Source: an uncultured delta proteobacterium
GTDB taxonomy: Bacteria > Myxococcota > Myxococcia > Myxococcales > Anaeromyxobacteraceae
Reading direction: 5' to 3'
DNA: 64,000 bases
NCBI GenBank assembly: GCA_963766715.1
Contig: CAVYBH010000013.1
Coordinates: 1-64,000, forward strand
Part shown: in pieces, positions 10,062 to 27,845 of the stretch
Numbering within the stretch: the first letter of the stretch is position 1
Layout of the letters: every line of letters starts with the position of its first letter
Notes under the pieces: generated by a model
Told to the model about the DNA's origin: nothing
The model's input: only the letters and a program-made list of their open reading frames with translations
Database searches by the model: none
Program-made: the position numbers and the translations under genes

Positions 10062-11566
10062 TCAGGCGATGCGTCGCTGGCCGGGCGCGTGCCAGGCCGG
10101 GTTCCGTTCGTGCATCGCGGCCAGCAGGCCGACCATCCGGTCCATGACGCGGACCGGGCTCGAGCCTCCTCCGACCGCCTCGTAGATCCCTGCCGCCACC
10201 ACGTGTGCGGCGTAGGCCCCGGCCATGAGCTTCCCGGAGACCGCCGGCGTGACCCCGGCGCCCCGGGCCGCGGCGCCGCCGTCCCGGAGATCCTTTCGCA
10301 GGCCGGCGACGATCTCCTCGTCCCGGTTCCGCCAGTCCTGGATCTCGCCGAGGGCCCGTCCCTCCAGCGCCCCCAGCCTCGTCCGGACGATCGCCCGCGC
10401 CACCGTCGCCGCCGACGCCCGGGCCACCTTCGCGGTCACCGCCGTCTCTCCGAGCTGGATCTGCCCGAGGTCCCTGTCGGCCTCGGCCACGAGCCGGTCG
10501 GCCCATCGCGAGGCGCCGTCGAAGGACAGGAGCCTCACGGTCTCCGCGGCGAGGTAGGCGCGCGCGATGTCGGCCGGATGCGGGTCCTCCGGGCGCCCCG
10601 CGTTTCGCAAGGACGGCGTCCCGTTCCACGCGCCGTTGAGCGCGCGGAAGTAGCCGACGAGCCCGACGGCCGCGGCCGGACCCATGTTCAGGATCCCGAG
10701 GACGTCGGCGGCCGACTCGTCGATCCGCTCCGCCCAGTAGCCGGCGACGTCCTGGCCCATCCGTTCCTCCAGGAGCCGGTCCTTCACCGCCTGCGCGAGC
10801 TCGTCGCGGAGGCCGTCGTCGGCCGCGAGCACGTCGTGGCCCGCCGTCTCGTGCGCCAGGGCCGGCCAGGCGAGCAGGCCGCCCCGGGCATTGGCCGCGG
10901 GAAGGCTCACCACCGCCGCGCTCACGTCGTACGTCCCGGTGAGGGTGGCCGGCCAGGTGTACGGGCCCGCCTCGGCGCTTCCCCAGCGGACGAGGGGCGG
11001 CACCACGCCGTGATCCGGAGGCTTCACGCCGCGCCGGTCCTCGGCGGAGAGGAACCCGTCGTAGAGATCGCTCACGACCTCCTGGAAGGCGGCCGTCGCC
11101 CGCCCCTCGTAGCCCTCGGCCCGCTGCAGGAGCGCCTGGGAGACGTCGAGCAGGAGCCGCGCCTCCCCTTGCCGCCCCGGGTCCATCGCGAGGACCCGCG
11201 CGAATCCTCCGGGCCCCATGCCGTCGAGGGCCCGGAGCAGCGGCTCTCCCACGGCCAGGCGGTACGCGTCCGGAACCTTGGCGCAGGCCTTCTCGACGCG
11301 CCCGCGGAGCGTGGCGAAGAAGGTGGGATCCGGAGGCCCGTTCGCCGAGGACACGGCCGCGCCCATCGCCTCCTCGATGCAGGCCTGGAGCCCTGCGAGC
11401 GACAGGGGATTCGCGGCCGTGCGCTCCACGGGGCGGGCCAGCGCGACACCCGCGGCGCTGCTCGACGCGTCGCGACCCCGGGCCGGAGCTGGGCTCGGCT
11501 CGGGGTCGGGAAGACCGGCGTGCGGTTCGACGGAAGATGCGGCTGACGGACGGAGCTCGGGAACAA
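10062..11566 (-). CDS. Hypothetical protein with HExxGH metal-binding motif
   Basis: Protein-like frame containing LAHETAGHD, IDESAAD and DPHP; start uncertain (SD-linked TTG 11566 is out of frame; an internal ATG is also possible). Confidence 0.75.
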
Positions 11567-11599
11567 GTGAACCTCCTCGGACGTGGAGCCGGCCACACT

Positions 11600-11615
11600 T
11601 GCGACCGCCATGCCG
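11600..11615 (-). promoter_or_regulatory. Putative sigma54 -24/-12 promoter
   Basis: CGGCATGGCGGTCGCA = GG-N10-GC, upstream of a GAGGAGGT Shine-Dalgarno at 11571-11578. Confidence 0.45.
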
Positions 11616-11747
11616 AGCGGGAGCCACGACGCTCCTCGCGATCGAGGCGCCCTCGGCGCGGCCTGCAGCGGCCGCGCGCCGGACCGGCCCGACCTTCCGG
11701 TCCCGTGCCCCGGGATCCGGCTCCGGTGCTACCCTGACCGGATGCCG

Positions 11748-12899
11748 ATGAAGACCCACCGCGCCTCCTCGCCTCCGCTCTCGCGTCGCTGGCGGCTGCC
11801 TGCGGGGAATCCACCTTCACGATGCCCGCGGGAGGCACCTTCGCGGCCACGGGGAGCCTGGCGACCGCGCGCGTCCTGCATTCCGCGACGGTCCTCCCCG
11901 GCGGCAAGGTGCTCGTCGCGGCGGGGATGGGAATCCTGTCGCCTGCCCATCTCGCCAGCGCGGAGGTCTACGACCCTGCCGCGGGTACGTTCTCCGCGAC
12001 CGGGAGCCTGCTGACGGCGAGGGCCGCGCACACAGCGACGCTCCTGCCCGGCGGCAAGGTCCTGATCGCTGCAGGAACCGGGGAAGGGCCGGTCCTCGAG
12101 AGCGCGGAACTCTACGACCCGGCCACGGGGACGTTCGAGGCCACCGGGAGCCTGTCGGGAGCGCGCAGCGGGCACTCGGCGACGCTGCTGCCCGGCGGCA
12201 AGGTGCTCATCGTCGCGGGGGTCGGACCCTCGAGCAGCTCTCCCCTCGAGCCCCTCGCGAGCGCGGAACTCTACGACCCATCCACCGGGACGTTCACCGC
12301 CACGGGCAGCCTCACGACGGCGCGCCGCGATCACACCGCGACCTTGCTGCCGGACGGGAGGGTCCTCATCGCCGGGGGGAGCTCGAGTGACGGCGGGGTC
12401 CTCGGCCTCGGCGGAGCTGTACGACCCGGCCACGGGAACGTTCACCGCGACGGGGACGTTGAACCAGGCGCGGACCTACCACACGGCGACCCTCCTCCTG
12501 ACCGGCAAGGTGCTCGTCACCGGAGGGTTCGGCCCCTCGAGCCGCGACCTGGCGACCTCCGAGCTCTACGATCCCGCGACCGGCACCTTCACGCCGACCG
12601 GGAGCCTGCAGAACGCGAGGAACCGCCACACGGCGACGCTCTTGCCCAGCGGCCGGGTGCTGGTCGCGGGAGGCGGGACGATGAGCGGCGGCGTCTCCCT
12701 CGGATCCGCGGAGCTGTACGATCCCGTGATCGGAGCGTACGCACCCACCGGGAACCTGGTGCAGGCGCGCGCGATGCACACGGCGACGCTCCTCTCCGGC
12801 GGCAAGGTGCTCGTCACGGCCGGGAACCCGTCGCTCGCGACTGCCGAGCTGTTCGACCCCGCGGGAACCGTCCAGGACCCTTCGCCCCCGGCCAGCTAG
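11748..12899 (+). CDS. Kelch/galactose-oxidase-like 7-repeat beta-propeller lipoprotein (frameshifts near 11760 and 12390)
   Basis: Seven xTGxL..AR..HxATxL..GxVL repeats across ORFs 11822.. and 12387..; LAAAC lipobox upstream. Confidence 0.85.
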
Positions 12900-13578: not shown

Positions 13579-14010
13579 CTACCGCGACGCCTTGAGCACG
13601 GCGCAGGACGCCTCGACGCCGCTCACGCAGGCCAGCTGCGCCTGCTCGAGGTCCCGGCACACGGCGGTCTCGGTGTACCCGTGGGCGGCCGAGAAGGCGT
13701 CCATCACGGCCACGCCGACGAGAACGATCCCGAGCGCGAGGTAGCTGATGGCGACGGGCTCCTGGATCCAGCAGGTGGTCCAGTCGCACCCGCTCAGGGC
13801 GGCGGCTCCGATCCCGACTCCGGCGCCGCCGAGCACCAGCGCGGCGGACCCGACCACGGTGTCCGCGACCGGCGCCGCCACCGACGTCGTGCACGCGAGC
13901 TTCTCGTTCTTCTCCACCGGCCCCTGCGGCGGCCTGGCCACGGTGATCCAGGAGCAGGCGGCCTGGGCGAGAAGGCAGGCCACGGCGGCGGCGGTGCGAA
14001 GCTTCGGCAT
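13579..14010 (-). CDS. Hypothetical Cys-rich membrane lipoprotein
   Basis: MPKLRTAAAVACLLAQAAC signal, two hydrophobic helices, several Cys. Confidence 0.65.
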   Translation of the reverse strand: MPKLRTAAAVACLLAQAACSWITVARPPQGPVEKNEKLACTTSVAAPVADTVVGSAALVLGGAGVGIGAAALSGCDWTTCWIQEPVAISYLALGIVLVGVAVMDAFSAAHGYTETAVCRDLEQAQLACVSGVEASCAVLKASR

Positions 14011-14191
14011 TCGGGTTTTCCTCCGGGAACCCGGCCATTCTCCCCTGCAAGGGAGGCCCGCCCCCGGGCCATCCGGGGCTCGACCCACGCGGTCGTCGCG
14101 CCCCTCGCCCACCTTGAATCCGGCAGCCGGCAGGCTAGACTGCCGCGCGTGCCCGGCGGGTACCGCGCGGGTCGTCCCAGGAGGCATCACC

Positions 14192-16001: not shown

Positions 16002-16393
16002 GGACGGCCGTCGGGCTGGCCCTGGCGCTGCTGGTCTCGGTCGACGGCGCGATCATCGCGCTCACGCCGATCCTGGCTCGCGGCGAGGCGACCTTCTGGG
16101 GCGGGATGGTGCTCCAGATGGCCGTGTCGGCCGGGGCGGCCTTCCTGGCCGCCCGGCTCGCGCCCCGGGACAACCTCCGGGCGGGGATCTTCCTGGCCCT
16201 GCCGGCGGCGATTCTCTGGGTGGTCCACGACGTCGCCGCCGCGACGCCCGAGCCCGGCGCAGGGGGTCTCGGCCTCGCCGGGCACGCCGCCGTCGTGGCG
16301 GTGGCCCTCGGGCTCAACCTCGTCCTGTGCGGCGCCGGCGCCGCCGTGGGCGACTGGCAGCGTCACGGGGCGACGCAGCCCGACGCCCGCTAG
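15998..16393 (+). CDS. Hypothetical membrane protein (4 TM)
   Basis: GTG overlaps the serC TGA; four hydrophobic segments. Confidence 0.6.
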
Positions 16394-18063
16394 TACGTTC
16401 CGACGAGGAACAGGTTCGACGCGGTCCCGAAGGGGATCGACGCCTCCCCGCTCTCGAGCCCCGTCCGGACCATCACCGACGCCCGGAGCGAGAGCCAGTT
16501 CGTGAGCCCCACCGTGGCGTTCACGGTGATGCCGAGCTCGTCCAGCGCCGCGGCCGAGGTGACGCCGCCGATGGTCTCGGTGGTCTGGAACCAGGAGAGC
16601 CTCCCGGTGAGCCGGGTGTCGGGCGTAGGCGCCCACGCCACCTGCCCCCAGGCGCTCTGTCCGTCCACCCAGCCGAAGTCCTTCAGGTACCCGAAGGAGA
16701 GGCCGGCCAGGACCTTCGTGAAGGTGACCTCCGGACCGACGTACGAGTGGGACACGAAGGAGGTCAGGTCGTCGACCCAGCCGCCCAGGGCGGCGATCCG
16801 CAGCCAGGGAAGCGCGTCGACGCCGGCGCTCCCGTCGGCGCGTCGCGACGGTCCCGGGTAGGTCGCGATGGGCTCGTTCTCGGGCAGGAGCAGGCCCCAG
16901 TAGGAGAACCCGGCCGAGAGCCAGACGATGGGATCGGGCCGGACGGTGAGCGAGAGCCGGGCCGCGTCGATGTAGGCCGGGGCCCGAACGTCGCCGAACC
17001 CCATCCGGAGGTCTCCGCTCGCGCTGAAGATGCCGCCCGCCCAGTAGTTGAGCAGCAGCTCCCCCTCGTAGTGGCGCTCCACCGCCGGGTTCTGGACCAC
17101 GGCCAGGCGGGCGCTCCCGGTGAGCAGGGTCGAACCGATGGGGGCCTCGAAGTTGCCGTAGAGGCCGCCGGTGTACCGGTTGGTGGTGGGCTCGGTGGTC
17201 CACGGGTCGGGCACCAGGCCGCCGAAGACGCCGATCTCGTTCCGGCCCAGCCGGATGCCGCCCTGGGCGCCGTCGAACACGGACGAGCCCGGGACGAACC
17301 AGGGCTGGACCCGGCCGAACGCGGCGCTCCACTTGCGGTTCGGATCGCGCTGGGCGAGCTCGAGGTCGTAGACGAGGAGCTGGGTCGACGACCCGGGAAC
17401 GTAGGTGGCATCGCGCTGGGTCCACTGCATGAGCCGGGCGTCCGCGAAGACCTTGAACCCGGCGAAGGCATCGAGTCCGTTCACCTGGACGTCGAGCTGG
17501 AGCCGCTGCGAGTCGCCAGGACCTCCGGGGCTCGCCAGCCACACCGCGTAGCCCAGGTCGCCCTGGATCCGCGGAAGCTGGCCGATCGACACGGCTCGCG
17601 GCTGCACCTTGGCCTCGACGAGGGCGACCGGAGTGCCGGTCACCTGGGCGAGACGCGCCGCCTGCTCCTCGTCGGTCGGGATGGGAGGCATCGTGGCCAC
17701 GGCGGGGGCCCCGGGGATGGTGGTGTCCACGACGAATCGGTCGCCGGAACGGATCCCGGTGCCGACGCAGGTCGCCGAGTGGTCGGCGGTCTCCCGCACC
17801 GTGCAGGTCCCGGACGGCTGGCCGGCGCGGCTCAGGCGGATGACCTGGCCGACGCCCACGCCCTCGAGGGCCCCGGCGTCGATGTAGCCGGCGCTCGCCG
17901 TCGCGAAGGTCACCTTTCCCTCGACCCGCCGCGCCACCGTGGGAGCGGGGGCGCCCTGCGCGGTTGCCGCGGACGGCGTGGTGGGCGGCGCCTGCGGCGG
18001 AGGCTCGGCCTGGGCCACGGGCGAGGCCGCGAGCAGCAAGGCCAGGACGGAGAGCGCGCTCAT
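16390..18063 (-). CDS. Putative outer-membrane beta-barrel protein
   Basis: Signal peptide, small N-terminal beta domain, many amphipathic strands, terminal aromatic residue (LFLVGTY). Confidence 0.75.
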   Translation of the reverse strand: MSALSVLALLLAASPVAQAEPPPQAPPTTPSAATAQGAPAPTVARRVEGKVTFATASAGYIDAGALEGVGVGQVIRLSRAGQPSGTCTVRETADHSATCVGTGIRSGDRFVVDTTIPGAPAVATMPPIPTDEEQAARLAQVTGTPVALVEAKVQPRAVSIGQLPRIQGDLGYAVWLASPGGPGDSQRLQLDVQVNGLDAFAGFKVFADARLMQWTQRDATYVPGSSTQLLVYDLELAQRDPNRKWSAAFGRVQPWFVPGSSVFDGAQGGIRLGRNEIGVFGGLVPDPWTTEPTTNRYTGGLYGNFEAPIGSTLLTGSARLAVVQNPAVERHYEGELLLNYWAGGIFSASGDLRMGFGDVRAPAYIDAARLSLTVRPDPIVWLSAGFSYWGLLLPENEPIATYPGPSRRADGSAGVDALPWLRIAALGGWVDDLTSFVSHSYVGPEVTFTKVLAGLSFGYLKDFGWVDGQSAWGQVAWAPTPDTRLTGRLSWFQTTETIGGVTSAAALDELGITVNATVGLTNWLSLRASVMVRTGLESGEASIPFGTASNLFLVGTY

Positions 18064-18953
18064 GGCTTCACCTTCCGGAGCGGCCGGATGCTGTTCCCGC
18101 CGGCGTCACCCACCGTTCCTCGCGGGTGGCACTCGTAGCAGCGCTGGTCCAGGTTGACGCAGGAGAAGCCCGGGACGCTGGTGTGCTGGGGCTGGACCGT
18201 GCTGCAGGAGTGGCAGCGCGTGCAGGCGGGATACGGCACGCTGGAGCAGGAGCCGATCTGGAGCGGCTGCGGCAGCGTCACGTGGCACCGGGAGCAGGGG
18301 ATCCCGGCGTGGTTGCCCGAGTCGATGGGGAAGCACGATCCGTGGCCGCCGAAGGTGGCGGGGCTCCAGCGCCAGAAACCGTGGCAGCCCAGGCAGGCGA
18401 GCTGCGGGTAGCCGGGAAAGGCGGCGTGGTCCGTCCCCTTGACGCCGGCGGTCTGCAGATCGGCCTGGTGGCATTCCCAGCAGGCCACCGTGGGACGGGC
18501 GAAGGCGCGGTCGCGCCGGTCGCCGTGGCACTGCTCGCAGGGAAGCAGCGCATGGCGCCCCTGCAGCGGGAAGTTGGTGCGGCGGTGCGCATCGGCATCG
18601 AACCGGGACTTCCATCCCTCGGTGTCGTGGCAGGAGGCGCACTGGACGCCCGCGTACCCGCCGTGGACGTCCCGGTGGCAGGCCGAGCAGGCGCGACCGA
18701 GCGGCTCCTTGAAGTCGCCGACATGGCACTTGCGGCAGGTCACCTGGAGGTGCTTCCCGGTGAGCGGGAACCCGGTGCGCTCGTGGATGAACTTCACGTC
18801 GCCCCACCCCTCGGGCGTATGGCAGGCCGAGCACTTGGTGTCCCCGGGGCCGTGCGCGGCCGACGCCTTCGCCGCCGGCTCGGGGGCCGGCGCCTGCGAC
18901 TGGGGCGCCGCGGCCAGGAGGAGGAAGACCGCTGCGGTGGCGATGGTCGTCAC
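18060..18953 (-). CDS. Multiheme cytochrome c (10 CxxCH)
   Basis: Ten CxxCH counted; signal peptide after GTG 18953, which overlaps the upstream TGA. Confidence 0.93.
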   Translation of the reverse strand: MTTIATAAVFLLLAAAPQSQAPAPEPAAKASAAHGPGDTKCSACHTPEGWGDVKFIHERTGFPLTGKHLQVTCRKCHVGDFKEPLGRACSACHRDVHGGYAGVQCASCHDTEGWKSRFDADAHRRTNFPLQGRHALLPCEQCHGDRRDRAFARPTVACWECHQADLQTAGVKGTDHAAFPGYPQLACLGCHGFWRWSPATFGGHGSCFPIDSGNHAGIPCSRCHVTLPQPLQIGSCSSVPYPACTRCHSCSTVQPQHTSVPGFSCVNLDQRCYECHPRGTVGDAGGNSIRPLRKVKP

Positions 18954-20770
18954 GGCTCGTACCCCCGGAAGGCGCCCTTGTGGAAGTCGGCGTGGCATCC
19001 CTGGCAGTCACGCGGAACCGGCTTGTAGCGCTTGATGTCGAGCTTCCCGACCTTGGCGACCGGATGGCACTTGTCGCAGGCCAGCTTGGCGTGCTTCCCG
19101 GTCAGGGCGTAGGTCGTGAACGGCTCGGCGTGGACGAACTTGAGCTTCTTCCAGTCGTCCACCCCGTGGCACTGGGCGCACTCGGTGACCTTCTTCACCG
19201 CGAACTGGCCGGCGTGGGGATCGGCGTGGCACTTCGCGCAGGCGGTCGGGGCCCCCGCGTACTTCACGAAGGGCTTCCCGTCCTTGGCGGCCGCCGTCGC
19301 GTGGCAGGAGGCGCAGGCGGTCTTGCCGTGCTTCCCGTCGAGGCGGAATTTCGTGTCGACGGCGTGGTCGAACTTCGTCTTCGTGAAGCTGGCCTGGTCG
19401 TGACAGGCCGTGCAGCCGCCCTGCGCCATGCGCTTCTCGAACTGCCCCTGGTGGACGTCCCGGTGGCAGGCGGTGCACTTCTTCGCCTCCACCTTCTTCT
19501 CGATGGTGAACTCGCTCACCTTCACCGGGCGCCGTTCCCGCCTCGCCTCGGCGCGGACCGCCGCGGGGACACGCTCCGCGAGCTTGGGATCCTTCACGTG
19601 GCACCGGTCGCAGGCGACCGCCAGGTGCGCCCCCTCGAGCGGGTACTTCGACTTCTGGTGCTCGGCCAGGTCGAACCGGACCGGGACCCAGCCCTGGACG
19701 GCGTGGCACCGGTCGCAGGCCGCCTGCGGCGTCCCCTTCTTGCCCAGCTGGCCGACGTGGGCGTCGAGGTGGCAGTCGGTGCAGGCCGCGAAGGACATCT
19801 CCTTGTACCTGGCCCTCACCTGTCCCTCGAACGGTCCGTGACAGGCCTTGCAGGCCACCTGCACGTGAGCGCCGCGCAGCGGGTAGCGGGTCTTGTCGTG
19901 GAAGCTCGCCGCCTCGCCCTGCGGCTTGACCACCTTCCAGCCGTCGATGACGTGGCAGGTCGCGCAGAGCGGACCGAAGCGGTTCTGGTGCGGGTCCTTG
20001 TGGCAATCGGTGCAGGCGGCGAACGGGAGGGGCTTCAACTTCGCGTAGGTGGGCGAGACCGCCTGCGGGAAGTCGTGCTTGCCCTCGGGGTCGGTGATCG
20101 GCACGTGGCACTTGGCGCAGGGGACCTTCGCGTGCAGCCCGGTGAGCGGGTACCGGGTCCTGGCGTGATCGAAGCCCTTGGTGGCCGGCTTCCAGGCCGC
20201 GGCGTCGTGGCACTTCGCGCAGTCGGTCCCGACCTGGCCGCGGTGCTCGTCGAAGTGGCAGCCGGCGCAGGCGACCGGCATGCCCAGCATGGTCTTCCGC
20301 CCCTTCGCGACGGCCTCCTTCACGGCCCCGTCGGTGATGCGGCGCGGGTCGTGGCAATCGGCGCACTTCGCCTTGGCGTGCTTGCCCGAGAGCGCCCACC
20401 CGGTCTTCTGGTGGTCGAAGGACTTCTGCCCCGCGTCCCCCCAGTCGACGATCGCGTAGCCCCTCCCCTGGTGCTCGTGGTGACAGGCGGTGCAGTCCCG
20501 CTCCTGGAGGCGCCCGTGGAAGCCCTTGCCCGCCGCGATGCCGGCGCGGAGCTCCTTGTGGCATTCCAGGCACTTCTCCGGCGAGAGCTTCTGCCCCGCG
20601 GTGTGGCATTTCGTGCAGTTCTGGAGCCCCTCGAGCTTCTCGTGGGCCCGGGACAGCTCACCCGGCGACACCAGATCGGCGCGCGCCGGGAAGGCGGAGA
20701 GCGCAGCGAGGAAGAGGGCCACCGGGGCGAGGAGCGAGCCGATGGCGGCCCGGCCGAGTCGTGATCTCAT
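18950..20770 (-). CDS. Multiheme cytochrome c (20 CxxCH)
   Basis: Twenty CxxCH counted; signal peptide MRSRLG...PARA; repeated H..T.(Y/F/W).L.G.H modules. Confidence 0.95.
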   Translation of the reverse strand: MRSRLGRAAIGSLLAPVALFLAALSAFPARADLVSPGELSRAHEKLEGLQNCTKCHTAGQKLSPEKCLECHKELRAGIAAGKGFHGRLQERDCTACHHEHQGRGYAIVDWGDAGQKSFDHQKTGWALSGKHAKAKCADCHDPRRITDGAVKEAVAKGRKTMLGMPVACAGCHFDEHRGQVGTDCAKCHDAAAWKPATKGFDHARTRYPLTGLHAKVPCAKCHVPITDPEGKHDFPQAVSPTYAKLKPLPFAACTDCHKDPHQNRFGPLCATCHVIDGWKVVKPQGEAASFHDKTRYPLRGAHVQVACKACHGPFEGQVRARYKEMSFAACTDCHLDAHVGQLGKKGTPQAACDRCHAVQGWVPVRFDLAEHQKSKYPLEGAHLAVACDRCHVKDPKLAERVPAAVRAEARRERRPVKVSEFTIEKKVEAKKCTACHRDVHQGQFEKRMAQGGCTACHDQASFTKTKFDHAVDTKFRLDGKHGKTACASCHATAAAKDGKPFVKYAGAPTACAKCHADPHAGQFAVKKVTECAQCHGVDDWKKLKFVHAEPFTTYALTGKHAKLACDKCHPVAKVGKLDIKRYKPVPRDCQGCHADFHKGAFRGYEP

Positions 20771-23003
20771 AGGAGTCCGTAGCCGAGGTAGAGCGAGACG
20801 CCGATGTGCACCGCAATGGCGACGACGAGGAAGGCCGCGAGGGAGGCGTGGAACACCCGCCAGTTCCGCAGGAGTCCGCGCAGGCCGCCGTAGAAGGCGA
20901 ATCTGGAACCGGAGGCGGCGGAGCCGGAGGACCGAGATCTTGAAGCGCTGGTGGTAGGCCGCCGAGCCGAAGAGGCCTCGCACCGCCCAGAGGCGGAGCC
21001 GCAGGCGGGCGCCGGACAAGGGCTCGCGCACGATGGCGGCCACGAGGGATCCCGGAGGCACCTCGCCGGAGGCCGACTGGATGAGGCGGTCCAGCCGGGC
21101 CCTGTCCCGGGCCCCTTCCAGGACGGGCTCGAGCTGCGACCGCAGCCGCTCGAAGCGCGCCGCGATGAGCTCGAGCTCCTCGGCGTGCCCGGCCACGGAC
21201 GGGACGAGGCCGTAGATGAAGCGCCCGATGAGGCCGGTGGCCACGACCACCCCCAGGGCGCTCGCCGTGGCGGTGGCGAGGACGTTGTTCGAGCGGAAGG
21301 CGGCGTGGAAGGCGATGACGAGCGGGCTCATGAAGCCCACGAAGACGTGGAAGTTGAGCCAGTCGCGGATGTCCCACAGCCCGGTGAGGGCCCGGGTCCG
21401 CTTCCGGACCGGGTAGAGGAAGTTGGAGAGCATGAACGCCGTCGCCACGATCCCCACGCCGTGTCCCCAGGAGCCGGCCGGCTTGAAGGCCTTGTTCATC
21501 GGCGACCGCAGGCGGGCCGTCGGGGAGAGCTGGTAGTAGTCCCAGCCCCTGTAGGCGAGGTAGGCGACGATGACCGCCCCCAGGCACCCGTAGAGGAGCA
21601 GCGTCCGCCGGAGCCGCTTGCGGTCGGCGAGCTCCTGGTCGCTCAGGCGGTCCTCTCCGCCGATGCGCGCCCCGAGCTTCTCGCCGTGGTACCGGCGCAT
21701 CTCCACGCCGGCCTTCTTGAGGAACTCGGTGGGGGGCTCGCCGCCGATGTTGACGATGATGTCGTCGTTGGGAAGGCGCATCTCCTTGCCCTCCCACTCG
21801 ATGCGGACCTCCGACGGCGTGACGTACTTCACCTGCGATGCGAGCAGGAGGGTGAGCTGGCCGCTGTCCGAGAGCTCCTGGAGCCGCTTCCGGTTGGCCT
21901 CCCGGGCCCGCCCCAGCTCGGCGCCGCGGTACGACAGCACCACCTCGGCCGTGCCCAGCTCGGCGATCTGGATGGCGGCCTCGAGCGCCGAGTCGCCCCC
22001 TCCCACCACCAGGACCCTCCGCCCGGCGTACTGCTCGGCGTCGGTGAACCCGTACGTCACCTTCTCCAGATCCTCGCCGGGGACGCCCATGCGCCGCGGC
22101 GTGCCCCGCCGGCCGATGGCGAGGATGACCTTGCGGCACTCGATGAGCCCCTTGGAGGTGTGAACCGAGAAGGCGCCATCCTCGCCGGCGATCCCGACGA
22201 CCTGGACCCCTTCCTCGACCTTCACGTCGTTCTTCTGGAGCGCCTTTCCCCAGGTCTCGAGCAGCTCCTCCTTGGTGATGACGTTCTTGCCGATCTTCCC
22301 GAATCCCGGGATGGTGGCCGGCTCGGTCATCACCACCTTGCGGCGGGGGTAGTGGAACATGGTGCCGCCCCAGGTCCCCTGCTCGAGGATGCGGTGGCTG
22401 CGCCCGGCCTCCTGGAGCGCACAGGCCGCGGCCAGCCCGGCCGCGCCGGCCCCCACGATGACCACGTCCACCGGGCCGTCCGGACCGCGGCGACCGGCCG
22501 ATCCCTTCGGCAGGATGGCGTCGATCCGCTCGGCGGCCTGGAGCCCCTGCCGCACCGCGTTCCGCAGCAGGCCCATGCCCCCCAGCTCGCCGACGACGTG
22601 CACGCCCGGCTTGCTCGACTCGAAGAACTCGTCGATCTCGGGGAGGTCGATGCCTCGCTCCGAGGTGCCCATGACGAGCTTGATCGCCTGGACCGGGCAC
22701 TCGGCGGCGCAGCGCCCGTGGCCGATGCAGTGGTCGGCGTGCACCAGGCTCGCCGCCCCCTTCACGATGCCCAGGATGTCCCCCTCCGGACAGGCCTTCA
22801 GGCAGGAGAGGGATCCGATGCAGATGTCCGTGTCGATGACCGGGTGCAGCGACCGGGGGATGTGGAGGTTCGCCTCGGTCTTCTCCCGGAGCACCTGGGC
22901 GTCGCGCGCCTGGCGCCGGCGCCGATTGCGTCACGTGCCGGACGGCATAGGCGATGGCCACCAGGATGGAGACTCCCGCGATGGCGCTCGACAGCAGATC
23001 CAC
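20767..23003 (-). CDS. Membrane-anchored ferredoxin + FAD/NAD(P)H oxidoreductase + ferric-reductase-like di-heme TM domain (frameshifts near 22931 and 20900)
   Basis: N-terminal TM; CIGSLSCLKACP and CIGHGRCAAECP; GAGAAG and GGGDSA; two H-x13-H TM pairs; removing two bases gives one 744 aa frame ending in an ATGA overlap. Confidence 0.85.
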
Positions 23004-23126: not shown

Positions 23127-23165
23127 AAAAAGGGACAGGGGGCCCGGCTCGCGCCGGACCCCCTG
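23127..23165 (-). terminator. Rho-independent terminator after secF
   Basis: CAGGGGGTCCGGC-GCGA-GCCGGGCCCCCTG hairpin followed by TCCCTTTTT on the minus strand. Confidence 0.65.
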
Positions 23166-23185
23166 CCGAATGAGGCAACTGTAAT

Positions 23186-24361
23186 CTACGCCGCCCGGGC
23201 GGGCGTCGCGCGCCGCTTCGCCTCGGCGCGCTCCTCGAGCCAGATGGTCATCGGAGCGGCGATGAACCAGGTCGAGTAGGTGCCCGACACGATGCCGATG
23301 AGCATCGCCATCGCGAAGTCGAAGATGGTGCCCACCCCGAAGATGAGGAGGCCGACGAGCGAGAGGGCGGTCGCGAACGAGGTGAGGATGGTGCGCCCCA
23401 GGGTCTCGTTGATCGAGATGTTCACGATGTCGCCGAGCTTCTTGCCCTTCAGCTTCCCCTGGTTCTCGCGGATCCGGTCGTAGACCACCACCGTGTCGTT
23501 CACCGAGTAGCCGACCACGGTGAGGATGACCGCCACCGAGGTCAGGTTGAACTCCCGTCCGGTGAAGGCGAAGTACCCCAGCGTGATGATGGCGTCGTGA
23601 AGGATGGCGATGATGACGCCGGGCGAGAACCGGAAGTCGAAGCGCAGGCCGACGTAGATCACGATCAGGGCCATGGCGTAGAGGATGGCCTTGAAGCCCT
23701 GGTTGCGGAGCTCGCGCCCCACGGCCGGGCCCACGTACTCGACGCGGAGCACCTGCGGCTTGGCGTCGGCGAACTTGGCGTTCAGCTCCTTCTCGAGCCG
23801 GTCCTGGATGCCCTGGGTGAGGACCGCCAGCGAGCGGGTGCCGGCGGTGAGGCCCGCCTCCTCCCGGATCTCGCGGACCTTGACGCCGGCCCCCTCGACC
23901 ACCGCCTGCAACTCGGTGGCGCTCGGGGTCACCTGGAACTCGAAGTCGATCTTGTCGCCCACCTCGGGGCTGAAGGCCGGCGTGCCCACCACCGGGAACT
24001 TCGCCTTCACGGCGGCGATGATGCGGGCGGCGTCCTCGGGCGTGAGGAGCGCCACGCGCCCCACCCGCACGAGGTATCCGTGCTCGCTCTCGGGTCCGTA
24101 GGTCTGGACCACGGCGTCGCGGAAGCCGATCGCCTCGATGTCCTTGCGGATCGCGCCCGGGTCGACGGCCTTGTCGAACTTCACCTGCATCTCGGTGCCG
24201 CCGGCGAAGTCCACGCCGTAGTCCAGGCCGTGGATCTGCGGAAGCGACCAGAGGATGACGGCCAGGTTGACGAGGGTCGACAGGATGAGCGCGATCTTCC
24301 GCTTCCCGACGAAGTCGAACTTGGTCCCGTGCGGGACGATGTCGAAGGTCTTGAATTGCAT
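23186..24361 (-). CDS. secF: Protein translocase subunit SecF
   Basis: GVDFAGG, VGPAVG and GYSVNDTVVVYDRIRE motifs. Confidence 0.97.
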   Translation of the reverse strand: MQFKTFDIVPHGTKFDFVGKRKIALILSTLVNLAVILWSLPQIHGLDYGVDFAGGTEMQVKFDKAVDPGAIRKDIEAIGFRDAVVQTYGPESEHGYLVRVGRVALLTPEDAARIIAAVKAKFPVVGTPAFSPEVGDKIDFEFQVTPSATELQAVVEGAGVKVREIREEAGLTAGTRSLAVLTQGIQDRLEKELNAKFADAKPQVLRVEYVGPAVGRELRNQGFKAILYAMALIVIYVGLRFDFRFSPGVIIAILHDAIITLGYFAFTGREFNLTSVAVILTVVGYSVNDTVVVYDRIRENQGKLKGKKLGDIVNISINETLGRTILTSFATALSLVGLLIFGVGTIFDFAMAMLIGIVSGTYSTWFIAAPMTIWLEERAEAKRRATPARAA

Positions 24362-26190
24362 CAGACGCTCAGCCGGGCGTTGTCGTGGCGCGTGGTCCAG
24401 TCGACGATCACGCGGGTCACGACGATGGAGGTGAACATCGACGCCAGCAGGCCGATGATCAGGGTGACGGCGAACCCGCGGACCGGGCCCGAGCCGTACT
24501 GCATGAGCACCACCGCGGCGACCAGCGCGGTGACGTGGCTGTCGACGATGGTCCAGAACACCTTGTCGTAGCCCTGGTCGACGGCCTGCCTCACGGTCTT
24601 GCCGGCGCGCAGCTCTTCCCGGATGCGCTCGTTGATGAGGACGTTGGCGTCGACCGCCATGCCCAGGGTGAGCACGAATCCGGCGATGCCGGGCAGCGTC
24701 AGCGTGGAGCCGAGCAGCGACATGATGGCGAGGACGAGCAGCGCGTTCTCCACCAGCGCGACGTCGGCGATGACGCCGCTCATCCGGTAGTAGAGGAGCA
24801 TGAAGAGCATGACCGCGCCCAGGCCGACCAGCGCGGCGATGGTGCCCTTGCGCACCAGCTCGGGCCCGAGGGTGGCGCCGACGCTGCGCTCCTCGAAGAT
24901 GGTCACCGGGGCCGGCAGCGCGCCGGCCTTGAGGACGAGGGAGATGTCGTTGGCTTCCTGGTACTTCTCCTGGTAGTTGCGCCCGGAGCCGAGCGTGATC
25001 TGCCCGTTGGTGGAGATCTTGCCCTGGATGTACGGGGCGCTCTCCACCTTGGAGTCGAGCACGATGGCCATGCGCCGGCCCAGGTTCTCGGTCGTGAGCC
25101 GGTCCATGAGGCGGCCGCCCTCGGCCGACATGGTGAACGCGACCACCGGCTCGCCGCCGCCCTTGGAGTTGTCCACCGAGGGGCGGGCGTCGGAGATGTA
25201 GTCGCCGGTCAGCTCGGTCTTCCCGCGGAGCAGGTAGGTCCGGTAGTAGCGCTCCTTCACGAGCCCCTGCCCGACGTTCACCTCTCCGATGCCGATGTCC
25301 TGCTCCCGGGCGATCCGGGGCCGGAGCACCTTCTCGATGGCGGCCTCGAGCTCGGTGCGCTTGCCGGCCACCACGTAGGTGGCCTGTCGCTGGACGCCGG
25401 TGGGGAGATCCACCCGCTCCACGAACCAGCAACCGGTCGCGGGCAGCGGCAGGGCGATCCCGGTGTCGGGACCCTGCGGGCAGACCGGGAGCTCGGTGCG
25501 GATGGCGTCGAGCGCGGCGGAGTCGTCGTCGACGATCTTGAACTCGAGCTGGGCGGTGCGGCCGAGCAGTTCCTTGGCCTTGCCCGGATCCTTGAAGCCG
25601 GGGAGCTGGATCTGGATCTGCGCGTTCTGCTTGCGCTTGATGTCCGGCTCGGTGACGCCCCACTTGTCGACGCGGTTGCGGATGGTCTTCTCCGCCTGCT
25701 CGACGGCCTTCTCCCGGAAGTTCTTGATGACCTCGGGGCGGAAGGCGAACCAGACGGCCCCTTCGGGCGCGCCCGACGGCGCCGACATCTCGGCGCCGTA
25801 GAAGTCCATGACCACCTGCTCGACCTGCTTGGGGTCGGTGGAGCGGACCTCCACGCGGGCCCCGTCGGCGGACGGGCCGGCCGAGGTCAGCGGCACGTTC
25901 TTGCCGCGCAGGAAGTCGGCGACCTCGTCGGCGCGCCGGACCACCTTCGCCTTCACGGCGCGGTCGACGTCGACGCCCATGGCCAGCAGGATGCCGCCCT
26001 GCAGGTCGAGGCCGAGGTTGAGGTGCTTCTTCGCGTCCGGCGCCCACTTCGGGACCGACTCGTCGTAGGCGGCGCCGTTCCGCTCGGACGGCGGGAGGGC
26101 GAAGTAGTGCCAGGTCGGCACCAGCTGCCAGACCGACCAGAAGAGGACGGCGAGGACGAGCCCCAGCCGCCAGAACCAGGTGCGCTCCAT
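24361..26190 (-). CDS. secD: Protein translocase subunit SecD
   Basis: LGLDLQGG, GMAVDANVLINERIREE and GPVRGFA motifs. Confidence 0.97.
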   Translation of the reverse strand: MERTWFWRLGLVLAVLFWSVWQLVPTWHYFALPPSERNGAAYDESVPKWAPDAKKHLNLGLDLQGGILLAMGVDVDRAVKAKVVRRADEVADFLRGKNVPLTSAGPSADGARVEVRSTDPKQVEQVVMDFYGAEMSAPSGAPEGAVWFAFRPEVIKNFREKAVEQAEKTIRNRVDKWGVTEPDIKRKQNAQIQIQLPGFKDPGKAKELLGRTAQLEFKIVDDDSAALDAIRTELPVCPQGPDTGIALPLPATGCWFVERVDLPTGVQRQATYVVAGKRTELEAAIEKVLRPRIAREQDIGIGEVNVGQGLVKERYYRTYLLRGKTELTGDYISDARPSVDNSKGGGEPVVAFTMSAEGGRLMDRLTTENLGRRMAIVLDSKVESAPYIQGKISTNGQITLGSGRNYQEKYQEANDISLVLKAGALPAPVTIFEERSVGATLGPELVRKGTIAALVGLGAVMLFMLLYYRMSGVIADVALVENALLVLAIMSLLGSTLTLPGIAGFVLTLGMAVDANVLINERIREELRAGKTVRQAVDQGYDKVFWTIVDSHVTALVAAVVLMQYGSGPVRGFAVTLIIGLLASMFTSIVVTRVIVDWTTRHDNARLSV

Positions 26191-26538
26191 CTACTTCTTC
26201 TCCTTGGCGTCCTTCTCCGAGGAACCCGTCGCGTCGGACCACGCCCCGGCGACCTGCCCCTTCACGAAGCGCACCTTGTTGCCACCCCCGAGGTCGAGGG
26301 TGACGGTCTTGTCGTCGACCTGGAACACCTTCCCGATGATGCCGCCCTGCGTGACGACTTCCGCGCCCTTCTGCAGCTCGGCCACGAACTGCTGGTGCTT
26401 CTTCGCCTGCTTCTGCTGGGGTCGGAAGAACACCAGGTAGAAGACCACGGCGATGAGGACGAAGGGGACGAGCTGCATCAGGGGGTTCGGCGCGTCCGGC
26501 GCGGTCTGCGCCAGGAAGGCCGTGAGGATCGAATGCAT
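26191..26538 (-). CDS. yajC: Preprotein translocase subunit YajC
   Basis: FYLVFFRPQQK and VVTQGGIIG motifs; position in the tgt-yajC-secD cluster; alternative start 26553. Confidence 0.95.
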   Translation of the reverse strand: MHSILTAFLAQTAPDAPNPLMQLVPFVLIAVVFYLVFFRPQQKQAKKHQQFVAELQKGAEVVTQGGIIGKVFQVDDKTVTLDLGGGNKVRFVKGQVAGAWSDATGSSEKDAKEKK

Positions 26539-26640
26539 GAATGCTCCGGTCATTGGAAAAAGCGTCGTGTTTTAGCCACATTTTGTCCCGGCAAGCAACC
26601 CCGAAACGGTGCGGAGGGCGCCCCGCGGCCCCGCCTGCCC

Positions 26641-27786
26641 CTACCCGTCGAGCCCGCGCCGGTACGCCTCGAGCCGATCCCGGCGGAAGGCGTCGAACCG
26701 CCCCGCCACGATGGCCTCCCGGGCCCCCTCCATCAGCCGGAGGTAGTGGTGGACGTTGTGCACGGTGTTCAGGTGAAGGGCCAGGATCTCGCCGGCCCGG
26801 AAGAGGTGGCGCAGGTAGGCCCGGCTGAAGGTCCGGCAGGTGTAGCAGGTGCATCCCGGGTCGAGCGGCCCCTCGTCGTCGGCGAACCGCGCGTTCTTCA
26901 CGTTCAGCCGGCCCCGGCTCGTGAAGAGCAGCCCGTTGCGGGCGGTCCGGGTGGGGAGGACGCAGTCGAACATGTCGACGCCCGCCGCGATGCCGGCGAG
27001 GAGGTCCTCCGGGGTGCCCACGCCCATCAGGTACCGGGGCTTCTCCCGGGGCAGCTCCGGGGCGTGGCGGGCCACCCCCTCCCACATCTCCTCGGGCTCC
27101 TCCCCGACGGCGTAGCCGCCCAGGGCGTAGCCGGGGAGGTCCAGGGCCGCGGCGTCCTCGATGGCCCGCCGGCGGAGGTCCGGGAAGAGCCCGCCCTGGG
27201 CGATGCCGAAGAGCGCCGGGCGCTCCCCGTAGGGGGGCTCGGCTGCGAGCCAGGCGTCGCGCGACCGGACCAGCCAGCGCTGCGTGCGGGCCAGCGAGTC
27301 CTCGTGGTAGCGCCGCTCCGCCTTCGAGGGCGGGCACTCGTCGAAGGCCATGATCACGTCGGCGCCGAGGTCGATCTGGATGCCGATCGACCTCTCCGGC
27401 GACAGGAAGTGGCGGGAGCCGTCGAGGTGGCTGCGGAAGGTCACGCCGTCCTCGGCGATGCGGACGAGCGACTCCTTGCCGGCGCCCTGGAGGCTGTAGA
27501 CCTGGAAGCCGCCCGAGTCGGTGAGCATGGCCCCGTTCCAGGAGATGAAGCGGTGCAGCCCTCCGAGCCGCCGCACCCGCTCGTGCCCGGGGCGAAGGTA
27601 CAGGTGGTAGGTGTTGCCGAGGATGATCCCGGCGCCGAGCTCCTCGAGGTCGCGCGGCGAGAGGGTCTTCACGCTCCCGGCAGTGCCCACGGGCATGAAG
27701 ACCGGCGTCTCGAGGACGCCGCGCGGGGTCTCGAGGCGGCCGCGGCGCGCGGCCCCGTCCTCGGCGAGCAGGTGGTAGCGGATCAC
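26641..27786 (-). CDS. tgt: Queuine tRNA-ribosyltransferase
   Basis: TPVFMPVGT, TDSGGFQ, DMFDCV and CTCYTC motifs. Confidence 0.97.
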   Translation of the reverse strand: MIRYHLLAEDGAARRGRLETPRGVLETPVFMPVGTAGSVKTLSPRDLEELGAGIILGNTYHLYLRPGHERVRRLGGLHRFISWNGAMLTDSGGFQVYSLQGAGKESLVRIAEDGVTFRSHLDGSRHFLSPERSIGIQIDLGADVIMAFDECPPSKAERRYHEDSLARTQRWLVRSRDAWLAAEPPYGERPALFGIAQGGLFPDLRRRAIEDAAALDLPGYALGGYAVGEEPEEMWEGVARHAPELPREKPRYLMGVGTPEDLLAGIAAGVDMFDCVLPTRTARNGLLFTSRGRLNVKNARFADDEGPLDPGCTCYTCRTFSRAYLRHLFRAGEILALHLNTVHNVHHYLRLMEGAREAIVAGRFDAFRRDRLEAYRRGLDG

Positions 27787-27845
27787 GGCCCCGTTTCGCC
27801 CGGGGAGCGGGTGGTGTCAAGGGGCGCCCCGGTGGGCGTCTCCCG

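Follow-up and report, generated by a model that had tools for sequence, protein, structure and literature searches.

The DNA analysed here, referred to as the window, is a stretch of 64,000 nucleotides corresponding to bases 1-64000 of contig C13 in the genome assembly of an uncultured member of the Anaeromyxobacteraceae (4.2 Mb, 18 contigs, completeness 84.6%), with a G+C content of about 70%. Its subject is a cluster of four genes, designated A, B, C and D, which are all encoded on the minus strand (23003 to 16390) and appear to form a multiheme electron conduit related to the predicted porin-cytochrome class PCC3. Neighboring genes share stop-start overlaps, and those reported in an earlier note on this DNA are present in the sequence: ATGA at 20767-20770 (A/B), GTGA at 18950-18953 (B/C) and ATGA at 18060-18063 (C/D). 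The same note had treated the first gene as a single open reading frame (ORF), which does not hold. The span of gene A, from 20767 to 23003, is 2237 nt, or 2 mod 3, and therefore is not one ORF; a metagenome homologue of 744 amino acids (aa), designated P0001 and 95% identical, maps across three frames, and the gene is spread over these by two single-base insertions that the note had missed. The features of the cluster are as follows.

22923..23003, minus strand: gene A piece 1 (P0001 aa 1-27), with a GTG start and the N-terminal membrane anchor; 93% identity to P0001
22928..22929, minus strand: first insertion in gene A, a +1 frame change, in the minus-strand context ACGCAATCGG
20897..22927, minus strand: gene A piece 2 (P0001 aa 26-702), with the Fe-S motifs, the flavin adenine dinucleotide (FAD) and NAD(P)H-type motifs and the first four helices of the membrane domain
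20900, minus strand: second insertion in gene A, a +1 frame change, in the minus-strand context CAGATTCGCC
20767..20904 (homologue match 20770-20904), minus strand: gene A piece 3 (P0001 aa 700-744), with the last membrane helix; 93% identity to P0001
18950..20770, minus strand: gene B, an exported cytochrome c of 606 aa with 20 CxxCH motifs (30.3 aa per heme) in c7/c3-type repeats
18060..18953, minus strand: gene C, an exported decaheme cytochrome c of 297 aa with a GTG start at 18953 and 10 CxxCH motifs (29.7 aa per heme)
16390..18063, minus strand: gene D, an exported protein of 557 aa with a signal peptide, an N-terminal beta domain, a linker helix, a predicted 22-strand barrel and a C-terminal Tyr
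23134..23167, minus strand: terminator-like hairpin and T-run between secF and gene A, with 15 pairs, 12 of them G-C

Proteins encoded by genes A to D

Read from the N-terminus, the product of gene A has, in its intact homologues, a membrane helix, an Arg-rich stretch, two ferredoxin-type motifs, a flavoprotein domain and a membrane domain of about 275 aa; the Arg-rich stretch comes after the membrane anchor, on its predicted cytoplasmic side. Piece 2 contains the ferredoxin-type motifs CIGSLSCLKACP and CIGHGRCAAECP, the FAD motif GAGAAG and the NAD(P)H-type motif GGGDSA, along with the first W-x3-H-x13-H motif, the TGxxG motif and a cytoplasmic helical insert, while piece 3 carries the second W-x3-H-x13-H motif and ends in a TGA stop that overlaps the ATG of gene B. 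The earlier note's description of a membrane protein with Fe-S, FAD and NAD(P)H modules and paired His residues is thus well matched by two Fe-S motifs, a Pyr_redox_3 domain and conserved His pairs. Proteins of this kind are abundant: when the 8000 candidates sharing the most words with A were scored, at least 7978 had E <= 0.001. The best 120 are mostly 730-780 aa in length, and the named ones come from the Anaeromyxobacteraceae and Myxococcus.

The flavoprotein domain is recognized by Pfam as Fer4_10 and Pyr_redox_3 (E 4.2e-45 for the latter), with an additional match to Pyr_redox_2, and its closest solved relatives are YpdA/Bdr (7a76, 7a7b), thioredoxin reductases (TrxR) and TrxR-type ferredoxin-NADP reductases. 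It has the same two-dinucleotide-binding domain as these flavoproteins, with Rossmann motifs for FAD and NAD(P)H (GAGAAG and GGGDSA). Its 149 bits fall short of the TIGR04018 cut-off (339.9), and it does not count as a YpdA equivalog. Both motifs, the first as GAG(A/P)AG, are kept in the window protein and in all seven of the separate flavoproteins examined from other lineages, which are described below. Outside the Fe-S motifs, an alignment of homologues contains no conserved redox Cys or Cys pair. The Fe-S motifs themselves (at about 22640-22830 in the window, P0001 aa 61-103) have three Cys each, in the forms C-x2-S-x2-C-x3-CP and C-x2-H-x2-C-x3-CP. In the second, the usual second Cys is replaced by a His that is invariant in the window protein and the same seven separate flavoproteins; in the first it is replaced by Ser, although some other lineages have Cys there. 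The clusters may consequently be of the 3Fe-4S type, or of the 4Fe-4S type with a His or Ser ligand.

The membrane domain has the motifs W548-x3-H552-x13-H566, T589-G-x-x-G593 and W714-x3-H718-x13-H732 (P0001 numbering), with the TGxxG helix lying between the two His helices. The four His residues H552, H566, H718 and H732 are invariant in 28 fused A proteins, and their equivalents in 76 sequences that include stand-alone forms of the domain. By the positive-inside rule the flavoprotein domain would be cytoplasmic, and each His pair is predicted to place one residue near each membrane face, as would be anticipated for a stack of two b hemes. AF2 models the membrane domain with high confidence (pLDDT 92.6, pTM 0.82). 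Its scores against PF14358 (DUF4405), 16.9 bits for P0001 and 14.5-22.5 bits for stand-alone forms, are below the cut-off of 26.7 and may reflect a distant relatedness to that family. One A homologue, in a complete genome (locus L018, G049:C1, 13759-15696), matches query aa 1-607 and 706-743 with about 16 nt between the two parts; most of the helical insert on the cytoplasmic side of its membrane domain appears to be absent or unrecognizable.

The heme-motif counts given in the earlier note, 20 for gene B and 10 for gene C, are correct, and both proteins match Pfam families of the cytochrome c7/c3 type. Gene B is a candidate periplasm-spanning wire and gene C a candidate barrel-inserted cytochrome. 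In sequence searches against the PDB, B has nothing at E <= 0.01, and C matches only NrfB (E 0.0035). Among C homologues from related loci, 62 of 64 have 10 CxxCH motifs. Neither protein approaches the cut-off of 192.2 bits for the DmsE/MtrA family model TIGR03508 (C 28.1 bits, B 45.7 bits), and the match of B to the HmcA model is similarly weak (41.4 bits, cut-off 400). The best tblastn matches of C fall at the N-termini of giant cytochromes in other lineages, and C was considered as the N-terminal barrel-threading module of such proteins. This idea was dropped: in hhalign comparisons the C family aligns to the N-terminal 290 residues of the giant cytochromes with E 3e-44, but the control segment, residues 291-580, scores almost equally (E 9.3e-40). 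C thus appears homologous to the repeat module of large cytochromes in general. The large cytochromes that follow the 20-heme gene in other lineages (L105-L184, e.g. L112, L135 and L153) contain from 16 to 73 CxxCH motifs.

Gene D has no CxxCH motif and no Pfam or NCBIfam match at E <= 0.01, and its assignment comes from structure prediction. Its AF2 model has a pLDDT of 70.6 overall and of about 80-87 across most of the barrel, which consists of 22 antiparallel strands in residues 165-556; in residues 170-548 the period-2 hydrophobicity is 0.87, against 0.63 ± 0.045 in shuffled sequences. Foldseek returned 315 matches at E <= 1e-3, and those listed are all outer-membrane or mitochondrial barrels. 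In VIA the 50 entries listed are likewise all barrels, including OpdQ (Z 16.3), a SusC (Z 16.2, 368 residues aligned) and BtuB (Z 15.3). MtrB (6r2q_B) is found at rank 36, under many unrelated barrels (Z 12.4, rmsd 8.3, 331 residues aligned). The models therefore indicate a large outer-membrane barrel that is not detectably of the MtrB family; the possibility raised in the earlier note that the last gene is not an outer-membrane barrel finds no support in a protein with 22 predicted strands and barrel-only fold matches. In the ESM Atlas D falls among unnamed clusters only, and the nearest named ones, at 0.85-0.88, are treated as leads. The N-terminal beta domain (residues 46-113, at about 17725-17925 in the window) contains two invariant Cys residues, C87 and C99, and persists in barrels as distant as those of low-G+C clusters; the hhalign alignment to those barrels begins at D residue 46. 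Docking of a cytochrome is one possible role for this domain.

Distribution in Myxococcota and relation to known systems

A survey of co-occurrence, which the earlier note had named as a check on its reading, finds the four genes together in nearly every locus. The close D family is narrow (74 proteins in the protein collection) and is present in 62 of the 92 genomes of the bacterial family; the eight regions around D taken from genomes of that family all have A, B, C and D in order. A D profile detects the gene in at least 80 of 301 sampled Myxococcota genomes and at least 41 of 126 genera, values that are a floor and whose tally includes one unpublished genome, G239. Alignment of A yielded 80 loci, of which the 52 with at least 6.5 kb downstream of A are counted as informative; B, C and D are present in 48 of these, and in the other four none of them is. 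Carriers, as named in the records, include Anaeromyxobacter oryzae, a Myxococcus species, Archangium, Archangiaceae and Myxococcaceae. In each of the four loci without cytochromes (L048, L066, L088 and L101) a full-length fused A is encoded, and neither a multiheme cytochrome nor a D-like gene is found within 7 kb of it; these seem to be paralogous copies of A. Judging by record titles, two of the four come from genomes that also hold a full copy of the cluster, and the ORF listings of their neighborhoods reveal no shared partner.

In 40 of 59 related loci gene C is immediately followed by D, and in the other 19 one gene (E) separates them. In all 19, E is a multiheme cytochrome, with 7-26 CxxCH motifs and mostly with a lipobox. 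Such a set, in which a porin is combined with one periplasmic cytochrome and one outer lipoprotein cytochrome, is the classic layout. The genus of the window has the four-gene form, in which no outer lipoprotein cytochrome lies between C and D. This form might suggest that the system is confined to the periplasm, with A, B and C acting as an NAD(P)H-driven reductase chain for detoxification or for reduction of metals or oxyanions, and D as a substrate porin that holds no cytochrome. Consistent with such a function, one query found no E-like gene elsewhere in the source genome (which is 84.6% complete), and the fold of D is no nearer to MtrB than to ordinary porins and transporters. However, the ATGA overlap couples C and D translationally, the only gene found between them in the 59 loci is the multiheme cytochrome E, and in other lineages D homologues always follow a large cytochrome. 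Moreover, porin-decaheme pairs that have no outer cytochrome exist, namely MtoAB and PioAB (PMC4245776). We consider the periplasmic function highly improbable.

PCC3 is a widespread and experimentally unproven class. As described by He, Barco, Emerson & Roden (2017, PMC5566968), it comprises a porin, an extracellular multiheme cytochrome (median 34 hemes), a periplasmic multiheme cytochrome (median 21 hemes, 22-39 aa per heme) and an inner-membrane protein of about 300 aa, which has five helices, two W-x3-H-x13-H motifs and an SGxxG motif on the helix between; the W-x3-H-x13-H signature is described for the inner-membrane protein of both PCC3 and PCC4. The C-terminal part of A (about 275 aa) shows this signature, but as a domain of a 744-aa protein. 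The 20 CxxCH motifs of B, at 30.3 aa per heme, are in keeping with the periplasmic cytochrome, and D is in keeping with the outer-membrane barrel (22 predicted strands; hhalign probability 99.3%, see below). An extracellular many-heme cytochrome is absent from the window, where C overlaps D, and has its counterpart in the 19 related loci with gene E. Three further differences are that in the window a Fer4/FAD/NAD(P)H flavoprotein and the inner-membrane module make up one protein, that a separate decaheme cytochrome, C, stands in place of the giant extracellular one, and that the host belongs to the Myxococcota, outside the Alpha-, Beta- and Gammaproteobacteria for which PCC3 is listed (PMC5566968).

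The link between the window and PCC3 is extended by homologues of the membrane domain, which number 1720 clusters at E <= 1e-3 among 1.84 billion representatives, many of them stand-alone proteins of about 290 aa. An alignment of 44 stand-alone proteins proved too diverse for scanning metagenome contigs, and a subset of 10 sequences was used instead; the 80 loci found by that scan accordingly sample one branch of the family. Neighbors were examined in the 33 stand-alone loci with at least 2 kb of downstream sequence. A full-length B homologue occurs in 32 of these (32-41% identity, with one outlier at 28%), and each complete ORF among these homologues has 20 CxxCH motifs. In 22 of the 33, the N-terminal half of A has a homologue in a separate Fer4/flavoprotein gene (37-45% identity), and in 18 of those 22 this gene is directly downstream on the same strand. 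The two separate flavoproteins that were run against Pfam both have Fer4_10 and Pyr_redox_3, and an N-terminal membrane helix as well. Five loci (L128, L153, L164, L140 and L129) have the order inner-membrane protein, flavoprotein, 20-heme cytochrome, cytochrome with 22 to 49 hemes and a protein of about 535 aa that ends in Phe, and the D family aligns to eight such end proteins with an hhalign probability of 99.3% (E 4.7e-20, 329 columns, including the N-terminal domain). In L134, an extra gene of 288 aa (11194-12060) lies between the flavoprotein and multiheme cytochrome genes.

Each module of the window cluster thus appears to have a homologue in clusters matching the published account of PCC3. 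The joining of flavoprotein and inner-membrane protein into one polypeptide appears to be the form taken in Myxococcota. The locus is best described as a putative myxobacterial variant of the predicted PCC3 class, distinguished by its fused entry module, its separate decaheme cytochrome and its host phylum; the basis for this assignment is the published description of PCC3 together with metagenome loci of matching make-up. The earlier note had recognized no characterized equivalent, which remains accurate insofar as no experimentally characterized system matches, but the cluster does fit a class that had been published and defined bioinformatically. The flavoprotein appears to be new to descriptions of that class. 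The main text of He et al. (PMC5566968) does not refer to FAD, ferredoxin, pyridine nucleotide, thioredoxin reductase or 4Fe-4S, and its eight supplement files, in text form, contain no Anaeromyxobacter, Myxococc-, oxidoreductase, thioredoxin, FAD or ferredoxin. No paper on a flavoprotein partner or on the myxobacterial cluster was found in the literature searched, which did not extend to subscription journals.

Other multiheme systems resemble the cluster in part. The porin-cytochrome conduits studied so far (Mtr, Pcc) are fed by quinol oxidases and are thereby tied to the quinone pool. With MtrCAB, MtoAB and PioAB the cluster shares translational coupling of a decaheme gene to a barrel gene, an optional outer lipoprotein cytochrome and the logic of crossing the outer membrane. 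Unlike in these systems, C is not of the DmsE/MtrA family, D has no Pfam match and aligns to MtrB no better than to unrelated barrels, and the inner-membrane partner in the window is not a quinol oxidase of the CymA type. The Pcc system reported for Anaeromyxobacter by Shi et al. (2014) consists of two genes, with a 12-heme cytochrome of 338-344 aa (PMC4245776); identity with the window cluster was considered, and the two were judged different by description, given the 10 hemes and 297 aa of C and a five-gene layout.

In the Hmc and Tmc complexes of sulfate reducers, a periplasmic multiheme cytochrome is wired, via cytochrome b in the membrane, to an Fe-S protein in the cytoplasm. This wiring from multiheme protein through membrane to cytoplasm is similar, and B has its sub-threshold match to HmcA; however, these complexes have multiple subunits, those in the membrane are unrelated, they lack both an outer-membrane barrel and a flavoprotein or NAD(P)H module, and the direction proposed for them is from periplasm to cytoplasm. 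DUF4405, MsrQ-like and PepSY-like proteins are multi-pass proteins with four central His residues that have been proposed as electron carriers of the cytoplasmic membrane, and a purified DUF4405 protein (modelled with six transmembrane helices and four His) and FezC bind heme b (10.1101/2024.03.13.584918). They partner flavinylated (ApbE) proteins, whereas the window combines a cytoplasmic NAD(P)H flavoprotein with c-type multiheme cytochromes.

The working principle proposed for A resembles that of the NOX/FRE/STEAP group, in which NAD(P)H, a flavin and two stacked b hemes on two His pairs likewise deliver electrons to the outer face of a membrane (NOX/FRE features are in part summarized by He et al., PMC5566968). 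In contrast to that group, the flavoprotein domain of A has the TrxR/YpdA-type two-dinucleotide-binding fold and not the FNR type, it is N-terminal of the membrane domain with no C-terminal FNR-type domain detected by Pfam, two Fe-S clusters are interposed, and the acceptor would be a chain of multiheme cytochromes in place of O2 or Fe(III) directly. The two-His-pair pattern is common to both, but PF01794 is matched in P0080 only, with 16.4 bits against a cut-off of 28.

Frame breaks in gene A and the flanking DNA

The first insertion in gene A severs the N-terminal anchor, and the second severs the last helix with two of the four conserved His residues. After the second insertion the main frame of A continues into B, giving an ORF of 1314 aa (18950-22894, minus strand). 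In its product an Arg-rich linker of about 45 aa would connect the flavoprotein, deprived of the final helix that binds heme, with the 20-heme cytochrome. This ORF is probably an accident of the insertion and not a genuine fusion.

The breaks could mean that the locus is decaying, with A a pseudogene inactivated by two frameshifts in this genome only, an explanation compatible with any mechanism for the cluster. Two single-base insertions lie within 2.2 kb, whereas rpoB and rpoC (about 8 kb) in the same assembly have no frame break, and the second insertion removes the helix that bears two of the four His ligands. Contigs from four other public runs (X1-X4) were aligned to the stretch, of which X3 covers neither break and X4 does not cover 20900. 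At 22928/22929 the contigs of all three covering runs (X1, X2 and X4) have one base fewer, as does one contig each of X1 and X2 at 20900, and close relatives are therefore in frame. Two runs labelled as RNA, X20 and X19 (the latter marked as probably DNA), contain 0.05-0.06 of the words. On the other hand, B, C and D are intact, each aligning to its homologues in one piece, and the low completeness despite only 18 contigs is taken to suggest a long-read assembly with indel errors. The A gene of another assembly of the same genus (G060, 20 contigs; locus L021 on C12, at about 13990-14015) also shifts frame once, near aa 300-306, which is elsewhere than either break in the window. Finally, He et al. 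report a similar frameshift, attributed to sequencing error, in a PCC3 porin (PMC5566968). Decay of A is a serious possibility, though we lean slightly away from it.

Upstream, the cluster directly adjoins a tgt-yajC-secD-secF block (23186-27816, minus strand), in which secF is identified by Pfam SecD_SecF_C (E 4.4e-64). The terminator that the earlier note had placed between secF and the cluster can be located as the 15-pair hairpin with its T-run at 23167-23134; the 7.5-kb region has two such terminator-like sites against 2.3 expected from shuffled sequences. The two genes on the downstream side, which encode a class-V aminotransferase and a TPR protein, are convergent with the cluster. The sec block is not conserved upstream of the cluster among relatives; in L017 a cysteine-synthase-like gene, as read from its translation, is found there.

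Electron path, alternatives and meaning

The cytoplasm-to-surface layout proposed in the earlier note is supported by the domain content, the heme counts, the predicted barrel and the synteny. On balance we think it fairly likely that the locus encodes a trans-envelope multiheme conduit of the PCC3 type, in a myxobacterial variant that is fed from NAD(P)H and runs outward. In such a conduit, an inner-membrane anchor would hold A so that its N-terminal half faces the cytoplasm, where NAD(P)H would reduce FAD in the YpdA/thioredoxin-reductase-like domain. Single electrons would then pass through the two ferredoxin-type Fe-S clusters and cross the membrane via two b-type hemes, whose ligands would be the H-x13-H pairs in two helices of the C-terminal domain. 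Their first carrier in the periplasm would be the 20-heme cytochrome B, whose length suffices for a periplasmic wire, and the next would be the decaheme cytochrome C, located in or at the 22-strand barrel D. From there they would leave the cell, with Fe(III), Mn(IV), humics or an electrode as possible acceptors. Cofactor binding, topology, the order of carriers, NAD(P)H as the donor, the outward direction and the independence from quinones are what we infer for this path.

The gene fusion and the conserved neighborhood suggest that the flavoprotein and the di-heme protein work together. The fusion, together with the neighboring flavoprotein gene elsewhere, favors direct feeding from NAD(P)H, and such a pair would need no quinone. 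Outward flow from NAD(P)H would dissipate membrane potential and not build it, and the conduit would therefore be an electron outlet (for redox balancing, reduction of metals or humics, or reductive iron acquisition) and not a coupling site. More tentatively, and with our judgement inclining somewhat against it, the fused A might be a bacterial counterpart of NOX/FRE, in which NAD(P)H, FAD, three-Cys Fe-S clusters and b hemes feed a 30-heme wire without quinones, and the whole PCC3 class might be an NAD(P)H-fed, dissipative outlet.

Several points weigh against a conduit fed directly from NAD(P)H. The three-Cys motifs leave the type of Fe-S cluster in A uncertain. A Foldseek search of the PDB with the membrane domain of A gave no match at E <= 1e-3, and its Pfam matches to DUF4405, Ferric_reduct and Ni_hydr_CYTB are all under the cut-offs. 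In a wide VIA search its best Z is 9.8, to unrelated helical sensor-domain bundles, with the di-heme CybB (5oc0_A) at 7.8; both values are below the level that VIA calls meaningful for helical bundles and argue neither for nor against an FRD- or b561-like fold. The A paralogs without cytochrome neighbors imply that B, C and D are not strictly needed by A-type proteins, which may have other acceptors. Lastly, the frame breaks may be real, in a gene broken twice in an assembly with intact rpoB and rpoC, and with a frameshifted entry gene the cluster may be inactive in this organism.

The other points on that side are those that speak for coupling to quinones, whereby the di-heme b domain would trade electrons with menaquinone and the flavoprotein would be a feeder resembling NAD(P)H:quinone reductases, or a regulatory or repair module. 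Related di-heme b proteins often exchange electrons with quinones, and some stand-alone members show weak similarity to the quinone-reactive Ni_hydr_CYTB. In 11 of the 33 stand-alone loci the available DNA contains no flavoprotein gene. He et al. proposed that the PCC3 inner-membrane protein exchanges electrons with the quinone pool (PMC5566968), and two preprints describe PCC3 as four genes with no flavoprotein among them: one on the Gallionellaceae pangenome (PMC9900912), and one of 2025 on Sideroxydans CL21, which calls it "functionally unverified" (10.1101/2025.02.27.639646). However, the fused or adjoining membrane-anchored FeS-flavoprotein gives a complete donor path from the cytoplasm, and no quinone-site motif was identified, though none was looked for rigorously. 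A quinone-coupled conduit is accordingly rated as unlikely.

The direction of flow might also be inward, with the wire gathering electrons from Fe(II), minerals or a cathode and passing them to the inner membrane or the cytoplasm. Multiheme wires are in principle reversible, and PCC3 was defined in Fe(II) oxidizers and modelled as an uptake route (PMC5566968). Against uptake, the transfer of electrons from donors at the level of Fe(II) to NAD(P)+ would be strongly uphill, and electrons moving inward would oppose the inside-negative potential. In addition, the Anaeromyxobacteraceae, Myxococcus and Archangium that carry the cluster are organotrophs and metal reducers, and are not known to be lithotrophic iron oxidizers. 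Uptake is for these reasons thought very unlikely, and outward flow from NAD(P)H remains the preferred reading.

The fusion makes an NAD(P)H-fed model of the whole PCC3 class, for which a quinone link of the inner-membrane protein has been assumed in the literature searched, testable with a single protein. If the model is true, the myxobacterial fusion would be a Rosetta stone for a class that is spread over many phyla, PCC3 genes in metagenomes would be read as an electron outlet and not as a marker of iron oxidation, and the predicted energetics would change, the pathway being one that dissipates membrane potential; the fused protein would also be of use, as a compact entry module, to those who engineer electron export. 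The cluster is also found in soil myxobacteria with an aerobic lifestyle, Myxococcus and Archangium as named in the records, for which we know of no described role in extracellular electron transfer. If the model holds, Myxococcaceae and Archangiaceae with an aerobic lifestyle might use the outlet to acquire iron reductively or to balance their redox state, and not to respire.

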